DNA from: a phage
DNA: 64,000 nucleotides
Reading direction: 5' to 3' (one strand)
Sequence record: PZ445443.1
A program made the position numbers and the translations under genes. The notes beneath the pieces are model-generated. The model saw nothing but the letters and a program-made list of their open reading frames with translations. It was not told the DNA's origin and searched no databases. Positions within the stretch are counted from its first letter, which is position 1, and each line of letters begins with the position of its first letter. This document shows, in pieces, positions 46,832 to 61,202 of the stretch.

Positions 46832-47160
46832 CAGAGATCATCGTTTCAACTGCAGGGTATGTATTCCTGACAATCATTGCGCTGGCTATTCTGGTGGCGG
46901 TGTATGGATTTGTTATCCTGCCTATTCTTGAGACATTTAGTTTGTGTCGGTGTTGGAGAAAAGCTTACGGACCACAACCGTGGAAAGACTGGTTCCATTT
47001 GGTGCGTATAGCGTTCTCTTATGCCTATGACCACTCCAGCAGTGCATGCGTAACCGGGTACCATGCCTACAACTGGAACTGGGAAGGTGTGGGAAGGTGG
47101 ACTGTTACAAAAACTATACCCTTGCGTTTATATAAAGGAAAGAACAAACTGGGCACCTGA
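46828..47160 (+). CDS. predicted membrane protein (110 aa)
   Basis: ORF track; hydrophobic segment VFLTIIALAILVAVYGFVILPIL; ATGA coupling. Confidence 0.5.
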   Translation: MTEIIVSTAGYVFLTIIALAILVAVYGFVILPILETFSLCRCWRKAYGPQPWKDWFHLVRIAFSYAYDHSSSACVTGYHAYNWNWEGVGRWTVTKTIPLRLYKGKNKLGT

Positions 47161-47164
47161 TATT

Positions 47165-47700
47165 TTTAAATTGCCAAGTTGCCAGAAATCAGGAGAATTT
47201 CTAAAATGGATTTTCTCCTGATATTTTGAACACATAGATATTTTAAAATTCTTAGAAAATCAGAAAATGGATCGAAAACTAAAATGGATTTTTTCAACAC
47301 AGGCGCGGAAAATTGTGCCAATCTATCTAGCCGTTTGCACCATATTCGAGATCACCGTTCCAGATTTCCTACACATACACACCTCTCCACCATACCTTTC
47401 TCCACTCACTCTTAGTGATTTATGACGGAAAACCCATCACTATCTTGAAGTTGCGGTGCAGTTTTCCAAGTACTCGATCTGTTTTTCGTTTCAAAGATTG
47501 AATTTTCTGAAAATTTTTCTCGATAAATTTCTCAGTACTCGATCTGTTTTTCGTTTTCTGAATCGGATTTTCTGGAAATCGTTCCGGCTCTCGACCTGAA
47601 ATTTTTGGGGACGAAATCGATTTTTCGTTTTCAGAAATGGATTTTTAAAATTTCTATATAGGAATATTTTAGTGGATACTATTTTATAGGAAATTGTTAC
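47165..47700. repeat. AT-rich non-coding region with inverted and direct repeats (origin-like)
   Basis: Inverted repeat TCAGGAGAA/TTCTCCTGA (47189-47221); 23-bp direct repeat AGTACTCGATCTGTTTTTCGTTT at 47469 and 47534; recurring AAAATGGAT and TTTCGTTTTC motifs; no ORF. Confidence 0.45.
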
Positions 47701-47759
47701 GGAGGGTAATTAGCGTGCTAATTAAATTTATTAAATGTGAGGAGTTCTCATTTAGAATT

Positions 47760-48110
47760 TTGAATGATAATCATTCTCGTTTGCAGAATAACGGGCAGGC
47801 CCGGTGATTGTCTCCCGGCCCCTGTTGCCCCGGCTTGTTATTATAGTATCACACAGGACAAAGAAAGCAAGGATTTTTTGCATAAATTTTTAAATGATAA
47901 TGATAACCGTTCTCATTTTATGCAGCGCCCATCCCCGGTGGTTGTCTCCCCCGTCACCGGTGCCTGCCGTCCTTTCGATAGGTATATTGTGCTACCTGGC
48001 GGGGCCGCTGTCAACACCTTTCAAAAAAAAAATTATAACCAGGTGCGCCCACTGCCAGTACCTGGCGGGGCCAACCTGGCAGGTCCGCGCTATAAAGTGA
48101 ACAGATGAAG
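47760..48110. repeat. two related GC-rich structured elements in an AT-rich intergenic region
   Basis: Both units share AATGATAAT...TTCTC-TTT-GCAG...CCGGTG-TTGTCTCCC; further TGGCGGGGCC repeats at ~47998 and ~48062; track ORF 47764..48108 is Pro/Gly-rich and coincides with the repeats. Confidence 0.35.
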
Positions 48111-48302
48111 AAGAGGTACATAAATGAAAGGTAATATGATCCCCTGGAAAATGTAGCTATTAATGACGCTGAGGCTATCGCCCTGGTTGAAAAGGCTATG
48201 GCGGGAGCGTTGGAACATAAAGAAGAGTACGAAAAAATGATGGTTAACCTGGCAGGGGCGGCGGCTGGAGAATTCTGCCCAAAAAATAATTTTAACTAAT
48301 GG

Positions 48303-57027: not shown

Positions 57028-57043
57028 TATTTATAAACTACAA

Positions 57044-57080
57044 AACAGGGCTTGCAATGGTCCTGTTTTTTGTTATACTT
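57044..57080 (+). terminator. putative terminator
   Basis: ACAGG...CCTGT stem followed by TTTTTTGTT. Confidence 0.45.
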
Positions 57081-57155
57081 GTTTCACGGCAGGCACCTGG
57101 CGACGGGTGGAGACAATCACCGGGCCTGCCTGTCATATAAGAACTATAAAAACCG

Positions 57156-57184
57156 TTGACATCTGCCATGGGGTGGGGTAACAT
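57156..57184 (+). promoter_or_regulatory. sigma70-like promoter
   Basis: TTGACA (57156-57161), 17-nt spacer, TAACAT. Confidence 0.5.
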
Positions 57185-59039: not shown

Positions 59040-59345
59040 TATCTGTAACAATAAGGCAACTATGCAAACGAATGGCATGGCGCGACGGAGTCGCGACATA
59101 ATATAAAAGCAGTAACCATCACCCCCGTGATAGTTTGTCTGCAAACTATTAATCAGATCATAGTTGCCTTGTATTTAGTTAATCATGACATAACAAGCAA
59201 GGCAACTATAGATCTGCTAATAGTTGCCCTGCTTTTATATTATGTCATAGAAACACCCGAAGGGGTGACCAAAGGTCACCTGGCATGGCCAGTGAAAGAT
59301 TATTAACTTGCTAATAGTTATCATGCAAACGAATGGCATGGCTGA
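59040..59345. repeat. palindrome-rich segment bounded by a 20-bp direct repeat
   Basis: ATGCAAACGAATGGCATGGC at 59062-59081 and 59323-59342; palindromes CGCGACggaGTCGCG, GATAGTTTGtctgCAAACTATT, GGCAACTAT...ATAGTTGCC, GGTGACCaaaGGTCACC; long-range inverted repeat GACATAATATAAAAGCAG / CTGCTTTTATATTATGTC. Confidence 0.45.
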
Positions 59346-59350
59346 TTATC

Positions 59351-59490
59351 GGTGTGTAAACAGTCAATCATGTAAATGGTTAGCATGTGAACAATCAGGA
59401 ATGTAAACAATCCAGTGTGTAAACTAATAGGTGTGTAAAAGTGTCATGTTGTGTCAGTTAGGTCACATTATGTCATATTGTGTCAGACAA
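59351..59490. repeat. iteron-like array of TGTAAAC / TGTCA(G/T) short repeats
   Basis: GTGTGTAAACAG, CATGTAAATGG, CATGTGAACAA, AATGTAAACAA, GTGTGTAAACTA, GTGTGTAAAAG at ~16-bp spacing, then TGTCAT/TGTCAG repeats. Confidence 0.45.
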
Positions 59491-60012
59491 GTTTTTCTCC
59501 TCTTTGTCAAGTGCTGCATGAAAAATTTACAATCTGGTATGGTAGCATTTTTGCGGCCCTGTTTACATTCAGGGGTGTATGTATAATCCTTGTTGTGTGG
59601 GCGTTTAGACGTCTGGACGGTCAGAAGTCTGCAGGTTAATATCTAATCTATTGGCTGCTAACTATATCCCACACAAATAGTAAGAAATATGATTGTTATA
59701 TGCGTAAACTGTAACTCATGTTATCAATCCCTGTATGTATCGCCAGTGGTGCGCATAATGGGTATTATGTTAAATTGCCCGTAATGATAAAGGTTCTCAC
59801 AATGATAGGTATTCTCATTCACCCCCACAAAATAGATTGCAAATGTTGTGCCACTGTGTGAACGGCCTAGCCTATTAATTTGCCTCACTGCCTCGATATT
59901 TGAGAATTGTTATAAGAATGAGAAGTATTCCCATTTCGTCCGCCTGGCAGCACTCCTGTAGGTCAGGTCAAAATCGTGGTAGAACTGGACCTGTTCAGAT
60001 ATTTCTGGCTGA

Positions 60013-61202
60013 CTCTTCAGGTCTGTGTGGGAAAAGCCAACCTCTCCGGCGGGGCAGGGGATAGGTCAATTAAAAAATTTACGTGGTGTATGAAGCGCTC
60101 TTCAGGTAAGGCAGGTATTATGGGATGAAACCCTCTTCAGGCAATGATATTTGTGGGTGTGATATTTGCTGGAAAGCCAGATATGACGGGACTCCCGGCG
60201 GGGCAGGGGTGGTACAGACAGGGAAAATATGAAGGATGTGGTTGGGTAGATTGATCAGACAGGTAGAGTATGGAATATGTTACAAGTATGTTAAATATGG
60301 AGGTTGAATATCTGTAGGATTTGTGTGTAAAATCAAAGACTTAAGTGGTGTTGTGGTATTTTCTATAAATAATTCAAGTTTAATAGGTGATATTTGTCTC
60401 TATCCGCTTTGTGTGGTAAACAGATTCAGATGAGATTGGTTTACAAGTGTATACATAATATACAAATTAAAGATACAAGAAACCCCCCTCCCCCTTCGGC
60501 TACCATTCACCTTTTCCTCTGACTGGTACTTAAACACTTATTCAGACTCTTCAGGTTATCACCTATATATCATATGGCAGTGACTGGTGTCCTCCGGCCC
60601 CTCTTTCGTCACCCGTCCGCTTCGCCATGCTAATGCCATAGCCAATGGTTCGGTTGTTCACCCTGTTCACTCAGGTGTATCTCCATACCCCTTCAAACCG
60701 AAGAGAACAGAAAACCCGAATTACTCGGTAAAAGAAAAGAGAAGAACTTAATTTTATCAGGATAGGCAAGAATGTCAAGGCATGACTGCTCACTAAACAA
60801 GCAAACAGTCATGTGTGGGAGGTAAGTGATTGTGGTGGTAGGAAATTTAGTTGAAAGATGTGTTATAGGTGCTTCCAGCACTTTAGCCGGGCAGCTAATT
60901 GTGTGTCAGTCCAGCGGTTCATCCTCTACTTCACTGAAATCAATGTTCATGGTCTCCTCCCAACCATCGATCTCAGCACAAGAGTGGAGTTCTTTAGGGT
61001 TTACTCCCAAAGCCTCAGCAACAGAGTCTATATTTAACACCTCTGGCAGGTATGATTCATCAAATTCAAGGTAAATCAGGCCACGAGTGTTGTCAGCCCC
61101 ACCAAATATTTCTATCTTCATGAAATCTCCTCTGGAAATGAGAGTGTGAACAGGGTTTTATGCGTTCCAATACGCTGGAATTATACACGTTTGCCTCTTC
61201 AG
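60013..61202. repeat. dispersed CTCTTCAGG 9-mers (5 copies) and two copies of CTC(C)CGGCGGGGCAGGGG
   Basis: CTCTTCAGG at 60013, 60098, 60133, 60547, 61194; CCGGCGGGGCAGGGG at 60046-60060 and 60195-60209. Confidence 0.4.
60906..61121 (-). CDS. hypothetical acidic small protein (71 aa)
   Basis: ORF track; ATG 61121 with GAGGAG 6 nt upstream. Confidence 0.5.
   Translation of the reverse strand: MKIEIFGGADNTRGLIYLEFDESYLPEVLNIDSVAEALGVNPKELHSCAEIDGWEETMNIDFSEVEDEPLD

Follow-up and report, generated by a model that had tools for sequence, protein, structure and literature searches.

The window analysed here, 64,000 nucleotides of the phage record PZ445443.1 whose positions serve as coordinates throughout, belongs to an rV5-like coliphage of the genus Vequintavirus. 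A gap of about 1 kb (47160-48125) without a credible open reading frame (ORF) houses two related GC-rich units that, together with a third copy ~9.3 kb away, are the subject of this report. The convincing flanking genes are all small, of early type and on the plus strand, and correspond to ORFs 199-196 of rV5. Identity over the surrounding 1 kb is 93-94% with phages slur16 and Mangalyan and 88% with rV5, and the 381-bp region of interest alone shares 97.6% identity with slur16 and 94.0% with Mangalyan.

The initial annotation had described two related GC-rich units in AT-rich surroundings, followed by short repeats, and our analysis bears out this description. Two paralogous units of ~135 bp span 47731-48014 within the non-coding gap and share a head (AATGATAAT; repeat D5, 47750-47782 versus 47886-47918, 73% identity) and a 17-nt core (repeat D8, CCCGGTGATTGTCTCCC at 47800-47816 versus CCCGGTGGTTGTCTCCC at 47934-47950, 94% identity, spacing 134). 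The stretch CCGGTG-TTGTCTCCC common to both units is this near-invariant core, which reads GGAGACAAnCACCGG on the other strand. The elements are 69% GC, compared to 34% for the ~570-bp non-coding stretch on their left. With up to 3 mismatches allowed, the window contains 10 occurrences of the head motif AATGAKAATCATTCTC where 1.58 are expected, with none of 100 shuffles reaching 10, and 11 occurrences of the core CGGTGATTGTCTCC where 4.09 are expected. The repeats following the units belong to a 14-mer family (D3) of TACCTGGCGGGGCC-like sequences with four copies, the first of which forms the GC-rich spacer of promoter P2 (see below); similar GC-rich spacers are found in orthologous promoters, and the remaining repeats look like decayed duplicates. 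Each of these 14-nt GC-rich repeats carries a CCWGG (Dcm) site (CCTGG at 47995, 48061, 48075 and 48248), and CCAGG is also present at 48040. The features of the two units and of the third copy, which extend the earlier description by an additional degenerate box, by the promoters up to which the units reach and by a third family member, are as follows:

47731-47755, no strand assigned: degenerate Fur-like box 0 (TTAAATGTGAGGAGTTCTCATTTAG), 29 bp upstream of box 1
47760-47778, no strand assigned: putative Fur box 1 (TTGAATGATAATCATTCTC), palindrome GAATGAT-A-ATCATTC, from consensus, matrices and fhuA identity
47784-47789, plus strand: -10 hexamer CAGAAT of a weak candidate rightward promoter, with the CA at 47796-47797 as possible +1
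47790-47838, minus strand: GC-rich element 1, with the invariant core GGAGACAATCACCGG at 47801-47815, from repeat D8 and alignments
47843-47870, minus strand: predicted leftward sigma-70 promoter P1, -35 TTGCTT (47870-47865), 16-nt spacer, -10 TACTAT (47848-47843)
47890-47914, no strand assigned: putative Fur box 2, overlapping sites TTAAATGATAATGATAACC and GATAATGATAACCGTTCTC, from consensus and matrix
47921-47978, minus strand: GC-rich element 2, with core GGAGACAACCACCGG at 47935-47949, from repeat D8
47986-48014, minus strand: predicted leftward sigma-70 promoter P2, -35 TTGACA (48014-48009), 17-nt spacer, -10 CACAAT (47991-47986)
47993-48006, 48059-48072, 48073-48086 and 48246-48259, no strand assigned: TACCTGGCGGGGCC repeats (family D3)
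57052-57133, plus strand: copy 3 of the module, TTGCAA (57052-57057), 16-nt spacer, TATACT (57074-57079)

The heads of the two units are the two best matches to a Fur box in the 64-kb window. Box 1 at 47760 agrees with the enterobacterial Fur consensus GATAATGATAATCATTATC at 15 of 19 positions, and the site GATAATGATAACCGTTCTC of box 2 at 47896 agrees at 16 of 19; the expectation for sites of 15/19 or better is 0.17 per window, and just one further site attains 15/19. We also built Fur matrices from published sites, namely a set of Gram-negative iron boxes (PMC10665472) and the Fur table of A. baumannii (PMC3055841). Box 1 is the top match of the 25-mer matrix (23.9 bits, with a training range of 19.6-31.4), box 2 is the window's best match of the 19-mer matrix (21.5 bits), and the scores of the boxes (18.3-23.9 bits) lie within the range of the training sites. 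Box 0 scores 9.5 bits with the A. baumannii matrix, and the 29-bp spacing that separates it from box 1 recurs between the boxes of other genera. The two boxes are likewise the best Fur matches across all 137,947 bp of rV5, in which the orthologue of box 2 ranks highest of the whole genome (23.1 bits). Box 1 shares 16 consecutive nucleotides (ATAATCATTCTCGTTT) with the E. coli fhuA promoter as read from MG1655, and the published iron box GATAATGAGAATCATTATT (list of PMC10665472) includes AATGAGAATCATT, a variant frequent in other genera. Arrays of GATAAT-like hexamers were found at 47760/47766, at 47890/47896/47902 and at every related locus, with overlapping matches offset by 6 bp that fit the behaviour of Fur sites as hexamer arrays. 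Across 17 related loci, as in the full rV5 genome, strong matrix matches cluster beside the core. The consensus, the two matrices and the fhuA identity thus support the designation of the AATGATAAT heads as putative Fur boxes, in agreement with the protein-binding sites that the initial annotation had offered as one option, and these boxes can probably bind Fur. Since none of the 34 phage records with a Fur-like tblastn match belongs to the two subfamilies that carry the element (see below), the binder would be a host protein, and we rejected a phage-encoded Fur for these subfamilies.

Two observations on individual boxes and their surroundings deserve mention. In the rV5-like metagenomic contig L039 (985-1080), the box of unit 1 is replaced by CGCCATGTTATTACC with core and promoter kept, and unit 2 carries a very strong box (23.3 bits). 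About 35 bp to the left of box 0, a palindrome TAATTAGC-GT-GCTAATTA at 47707-47724 may be another operator; it is perfect over 18 bp (TAATTAGCATGCTAATTA) in contig L033 and carries 1-2 changes in rV5 and L039.

Each GC-rich element adjoins a predicted promoter on the minus strand. The -10 hexamer of P1 is preceded by TG, and its start, read from the sequence, is predicted near 47836. P2, with a start predicted near 47979, scores 10/12 in the promoter scan, is conserved in rV5 and in the related loci L002, L027 and L033, and has a T-run on its own strand just upstream (48024-48033); it resembles the early-promoter consensus of Certrevirus, AAAA(N4)TGTTGAC(N17)TATAAT (PMC7344957). Orthologous minus-strand promoters, present at this position in each copy and each genus, read TTGCAA-17-TATATT, TTGACC-17-GATAAT, TTGATC-16-TATTAT and TTGACA-16-TATTAT, and over at least 20 copies the TTG and TAnnnT hexamers hold their position while the spacers diverge. 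Hexamers of sigma-70 type at a 16-17-nt spacing are present in P1, P2 and copy 3, all of which we class as predicted early promoters, and the two leftward promoters are probably real. The unit order is promoter, 27-30 nt (37 in unit 2), GGAGACAAnCACCGG and a conserved tail, the interval from -10 to core being 27-30 nt in most copies and 37 nt in unit 2. The conserved GC-rich block measures ~35 nt and is centred on GGAGACAAnCACCGG, with a single mismatch separating the core of element 2 from that of element 1. With conserved promoters directly next to the core, transcription of the region is very probable, and the RNA may have a role as an unstructured or linear motif. Copies 1 and 2 point leftward, against the surrounding genes and into non-coding DNA.

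Copy 3 lies between two plus-strand genes, directly after a terminator-like hairpin (57042-57069), and its promoter TTGCAA-16-TATACT was also found by the promoter scan. Its GC-rich element (57086-57133) contains the core GGAGACAATCACCGG, with an exact 14-mer of the core at 57109-57122 on the opposite strand, and its transcript is predicted to start near 57086. A run of 22 bases is common to copy 3 and unit 1, and one of 12 bases to copy 3 and unit 2; element 2 has ACGGCAGGCACC in common with copy 3. A second promoter-like site, TTGACA-17-TAACAT (57156-57184), follows ~70 nt past copy 3. Co-variation of a GGCC/GGGGG polymorphism in unit 1 with that in copy 3, seen in the window and rV5, breaks down in Mangalyan and was dropped. 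In phages of Certrevirus, Seunavirus, Mydovirus and Phapecoctavirus, direct repeats of the form CTTTACA-N3-CTTTACA stand just upstream of -35 elements (L011 1310-1330, L042 ~650-680 and L044 ~640-665); the window lacks them at this locus. Their other strand, GTAAA-N5-GTAAA, presumably corresponds to the CpxR-box pattern.

On the plus strand, the interval between box and core contains the weak candidate for a rightward promoter. Its -35 hexamer TTGAAT (47760-47765) is separated by 18 nt from CAGAAT, such that box 1 covers the -35 and the first 13 nt of the spacer. The CA dinucleotide 7 nt past CAGAAT is invariant in 18 aligned sequences (C40 and A41 of the alignment). In each locus-1 orthologue exactly 43 nt separate the last box from the core, and the interval is conserved without indels. 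The GTTGAAT in this interval resembles the TGTTGAC early -35 of the family (PMC7344957).

About 250 phage records match the element, whose box, core and promoter have been retained by six genera from two phage subfamilies. Besides Vequintavirus, these are Mydovirus, Seunavirus, Certrevirus and Henunavirus (Vequintavirinae) and Phapecoctavirus (Stephanstirmvirinae), with phages infecting Klebsiella, Proteus, Salmonella, Enterobacter, Cronobacter, Pectobacterium and Erwinia. Outside Vequintavirus only the box-plus-core part of unit 1 (~60-75 nt) is kept, at 81-90% identity, and the flanks are not alignable; these genera have one to five boxes per genome, commonly 29 bp apart. rV5 has exactly three copies of the module. 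Phapecoctavirus and Certrevirus also retain copy 3, and a Fur-like box comes after it in phage DU_PP_IV. We found no similar sequence in any of 5,426 E. coli genomes, and among 185,579 bacterial and archaeal genomes box plus core occurred in a single contig of a metagenome-assembled genome (MAG), on which grounds a host origin of the module was rejected. The module is phage-specific and old. Between 17 and 18 unannotated GenBank records labelled 'Campylobacter phage' are approximately 90% or more identical to this region of an E. coli phage, and are probably mislabelled or contaminant assemblies.

The genes next to the module vary. In other genera the right-adjacent genes run leftward (L012 1476-1898, L006 1498-1764, L009 1508-1693 and L005 572-763, all on the minus strand). 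The neighbour in CB7 and ESCO13 is a helix-turn-helix (HTH)-like gene with a shared LGWQGGTVHQVA..TGL motif, and the one in Mydovirus and Seunavirus codes for a DUF7170 protein; neither occurs in the window or in rV5. Genera with differing neighbour genes nevertheless retain the box, which argues for a common host factor. In the literature searched we found no report of Fur boxes or of the core element in rV5-like or other virulent phages, and the genome papers of rV5 and CB7 mention neither. The novelty lies in the new setting of a putative operator of known type and in its coupling to a conserved element that had not been described.

We found no evidence of a coding function or of a conserved fold. 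The 114-aa ORF at 47764-48108, which the initial annotation had considered probably spurious, is disrupted by in-frame stops in L033 and L039 and by frameshifting indels in relatives, and its substitutions by codon position (5/8/8, 2/6/6, 7/12/5 and 3/10/5) show no third-position bias. We also rejected a 29-codon ORF (47716-47805) with a GGAGGG ribosome-binding site, whose start or stop is lost in L039 and L033 and which is absent from other genera by manual reading of the pile-up, and a mini-ORF starting from a GTG inside the core, which by manual reading varies from 7 to 57 codons across copies and has no ribosome-binding site. The structured RNA that had been proposed as an alternative to protein-binding sites, with folding and covariation across related phages named beforehand as the check, found no support. 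There was no Rfam match in the units (E up to 10) or in seven related loci (E up to 1). RNAalifold returned no pairs in the GC-rich part of 18 orthologues and paralogues (alignment A1), in which the 4 invariant pairs lay inside the box, and no pairs at all for 20 copies on the core strand (A4). A hairpin taken from Certrevirus and specified by hand paired in 71.4% of cells compared to 71.1% after shuffling, with 244 of 500 shuffles as good, and thus revealed no covariation. The inverted repeat ATAGCGGG...CCCGCTAT, considered as a conserved hairpin, is, like the outer stem of the hairpin above, significant only in Certrevirus, is borderline in unit 1 of Vequintavirus, lacks covariation, and is not significant in unit 2, Seunavirus, Phapecoctavirus, Henunavirus or POP18. 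Folding energies appear unremarkable, with z-scores of -0.6 and -2.0 for the two strands of unit 1, -0.8 and -2.0 for those of unit 2, and means of -1.2 and -0.8 over 27 copies. The conserved feature is a linear sequence.

Several other candidates were discarded. ARAGORN detected no tRNA in the window or in loci L001-L005, and a tRNA or tRNA remnant was rejected, as the stretch so annotated elsewhere is the Fur-box region; the Klebsiella phage record OY978796.1 (L004 1493-1646) places tRNA-Met and tRNA-Ile on the Fur-box/core region, an annotation that looks misplaced. A pseudo-ToxI mimic as in phage phiTE was excluded because the present locus corresponds to phiTE_078/079 and the escape locus lies elsewhere, at 106,714-106,772 (PMC3475682). 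The repeat period here is 29 nt, and we saw no resemblance to the ToxI sequence. Resemblances to sites for sigma-54, sigma-32, OxyR, MntR, Zur and RfaH (ops) were dropped after a check by eye. A different element deserves note: in the other genera, as seen in Cronobacter phage CR8 (L011 1340-1440) and orthologues in L003-L013, a highly conserved block of ~100 nt (ACCGGCGATCCACCTTCC...TAGCCCCGCCTTTTCGCCGTGGGGTGGCG) stands where unit 2 would be, with its own leftward promoter, no Rfam match, and hairpin- or pseudoknot-like compensatory changes (CCCC:GGGG to CCAA:TTGG; ACCAGG:CCTGGT), which makes it a candidate structured RNA.

Our favoured reading, to which we assign a probability of about 0.5, is that the units are Fur-gated, antisense-oriented non-coding transcription modules present in tandem, phage-specific copies. 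Each module would consist of a site for host Fur, a GC-rich block of ~35 nt with GGAGACAAnCACCGG and a minus-strand early sigma-70 promoter. The leftward promoter would transcribe the core strand from a start ~20-30 nt upstream of the core and, since the flanking genes are all on the plus strand, both leftward promoters are antisense to the early transcription unit. The resulting non-coding RNA would run across the Fur boxes into the stretch of 34% GC. When iron is plentiful, Fur-Fe2+ would occupy the box or boxes, with two possible consequences. In the first, Fur would repress the weak rightward promoter TTGAAT-18-CAGAAT, starting at the invariant CA; the box over the -35 and most of the spacer would then be in a classical repressor position, if this promoter is real, and rightward and leftward transcripts would meet head-on with ~40 nt of overlap, as in IS10 pIN/pOUT. 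We regard such a face-to-face promoter pair as somewhat less likely than not. In the second, Fur would sit 45-130 nt beyond the leftward start as a roadblock that blocks or truncates the antisense transcripts. Either way, how sense and antisense transcription are balanced at a junction of the early region would depend on the iron status of the host. The comparisons establish the parts of the module with their conservation, copy number and orientation, and Fur binding, promoter activity and any effect on the phage are deduced from them. The more general proposition that the virulent Vequintavirinae and Stephanstirmvirinae sense iron through host Fur gating a three-member family of GGAGACAAnCACCGG non-coding transcription units is, at this stage, doubtful.

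A number of observations weigh against the Fur-gated module. The box lies ~45-70 nt downstream of the predicted start of the strong leftward promoter, which it does not overlap, and this is not the classical position of a repressor; the candidate promoter over which the box does lie matches the consensus at only 8/12 positions, and its -11 position varies (CAGAAT, CGGAAT, CTGAAT). No intrinsic terminator follows any copy in the window. L039 keeps unit 1 without its box and copy 3 of the window is also boxless, and box and core can therefore be uncoupled. An arrayed, AT-rich palindrome of 19 bp also resembles the operator of a phage repressor. Finally, literature searches for rV5-type transcriptomes and for phage Fur boxes yielded nothing relevant.

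The resemblance to a phage operator leads to the first of the rival explanations, namely that the 19-bp palindromes, in arrays of one to five, are operators for phage proteins in an immunity-like control region, that their likeness to Fur boxes is coincidental, and that the 15-nt core is a second operator downstream of special early promoters. Palindromes 29 bp apart adjoining opposed promoters are what such a region would display, an invariant linear motif without conserved structure is as expected for a protein site, and an HTH-like gene adjoins the module in CB7 and ESCO13. However, the likeness to Fur sites extends over 19-25 nt and includes the 16-nt identity with fhuA, the neighbours change with the genus (HTH-like, DUF7170 or none) while the box stays, and we found no candidate binder common to all genera; we consider this explanation unlikely. 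A somewhat smaller chance is given to the idea that the three copies are genes for small or antisense RNAs, with the core GGAGACAAnCACCGG as a base-pairing seed or a protein-binding RNA motif and the boxes secondary. Such RNAs could pair with the rightward early transcript across units 1 and 2, with RNase III processing, or with host targets. A predicted promoter on the core strand stands directly upstream of each of the three paralogues per genome, in most copies the predicted hairpin has the core in its apical part, and the core strand folds slightly better than its complement (z of -2.0 versus -0.6 for unit 1, and means of -1.2 versus -0.8). Against it, no conserved structure and no covariation were found, no terminator-like site follows any copy, no Rfam family matches, and no complementary site was found elsewhere in the rV5 genome.

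The remaining two explanations are a replication origin and a Fur decoy. Because the tandem promoters aim away from any gene, into ~570 bp of repetitive non-coding DNA of 34% GC, they could belong to a transcription-activated replication origin similar to the primary origin of T7 or to oriF and oriG of T4, in which the GC-rich transcript would prime synthesis or open the DNA; rV5-like phages do have genes for a T7-type polymerase and a primase-helicase. Such an origin is very unlikely here, given that the cumulative GC skew has no inflection at 47-48 kb, that the elements hold almost equal amounts of G and C, which would confer only a weak R-loop bias, and that copy 3 occupies a short intergenic gap. 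The locus also has no DnaA boxes, which counts against this origin and led us to reject one of the DnaA-box type; the sole non-coding matches (59432 and 60324) fall in another non-coding region. Alternatively, hundreds of genome copies with two to five boxes each might titrate host Fur and derepress iron uptake, which could feed the iron-dependent ribonucleotide reductases of the phage. Multicopy Fur boxes do titrate Fur, as exploited in the FURTA assay, the boxes are multiple and strong, and rV5 encodes ribonucleotide reductases of classes I and III. A decoy would nonetheless have no need of a fixed core spacing or conserved flanks, rV5-like genomes contain only two strong boxes, and host transcription is probably curtailed by the time the copy number is high, and this explanation is very improbable.

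Two further non-coding stretches of the window were noted. To the left of the units, the AT-rich DNA at 47160-47650 contains direct repeats of 65-78 bp (AGTACTCGATCTGTTTTTCGTTT..GGATTTTCTG), a plus-strand promoter-like site (47179-47207) and a plus-strand terminator-like hairpin (47601-47638), and could be a separate non-coding transcription unit. A second, larger non-coding region at 59300-61200, which appears to be the 'non-coding' box on the rV5 map and lies near a flip in gene orientation, contains repeats of the GTGTGTAAAC type, two copies of CTCCGGCGGGGCAGGGG, the two DnaA-box matches at 59432 and 60324 and weak Fur-like boxes (59780-59935).

If virulent phages of the Vequintavirinae and Stephanstirmvirinae do sense iron through host Fur, iron limitation, as met in the gut or during infection, would switch sense and antisense transcription in their early region and alter how lytic infection proceeds. 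Phages of the rV5 and phAPEC8 types rank among the coliphages with the broadest host range and are used in cocktails for phage therapy and biocontrol. With early transcription wired to host Fur, their efficiency of infection would depend on the supply of iron, which is low in gut, urine and inflamed tissue, the sites where these phages are intended to act. This would clearly exemplify the use of a global host regulator as an environmental sensor by a strictly lytic phage, and would give a function to a conserved non-coding element now annotated as hypothetical proteins or tRNA.

The module can be compared with several known systems. If the weak rightward promoter is real, the starts would face each other ~40 nt apart and the 5' end of one RNA would be complementary to the apical part of the hairpin of the other, which recalls pIN-pOUT of IS10/Tn10 (RNA-IN and RNA-OUT) and the face-to-face pR-pL of coliphage 186, although here there is no sequence kinship and no gene start in the overlap, one promoter is weak and an operator for a host repressor would be added. 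A looser analogy is provided by the RfaH ops element and the put RNA of HK022, which are also short invariant motifs at a near-fixed distance past a few special promoters; the core, however, matches the ops consensus at 4/12 positions by manual comparison and has no two-stem folds of the put kind. The small RNAs PrrF1 and PrrF2 of Pseudomonas and RyhB are Fur-repressed, and PrrF is tandemly duplicated. The PrrF pair resembles the present units as tandem paralogous non-coding units each with a Fur box, but in PrrF and RyhB the box covers the promoter of the small RNA and a terminator is present, whereas here the box is downstream, without terminator or Rfam match. The boxes themselves are closest to those of Enterobacterales, such as fhuA and iucA, as 19-bp AT-rich palindromes of GATAAT-like hexamers matching at 15-16/19 positions; they have ATAATCATTCTCGTTT in common with fhuA and AATGAGAATCATT with the iron box GATAATGAGAATCATTATT, which we take to be the iucA site. 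They differ from these in being located in a virulent phage, off the strong promoter, in 29-bp arrays beside a GC-rich core. Fur regulation of phage-borne genes is known from temperate phages, since stx1 on Shiga-toxin phages is Fur-regulated. The same holds for sitABCD, carried by lambdoid temperate coliphages (PMC6969025). There, as proposed here, a box for host Fur in phage DNA ties phage-borne transcription to iron status, but stx1 and sitABCD are cargo of lysogenic conversion with the box in its classical position, whereas the putative boxes described here lie in non-coding DNA of a strictly lytic phage, within the early region of two whole subfamilies.

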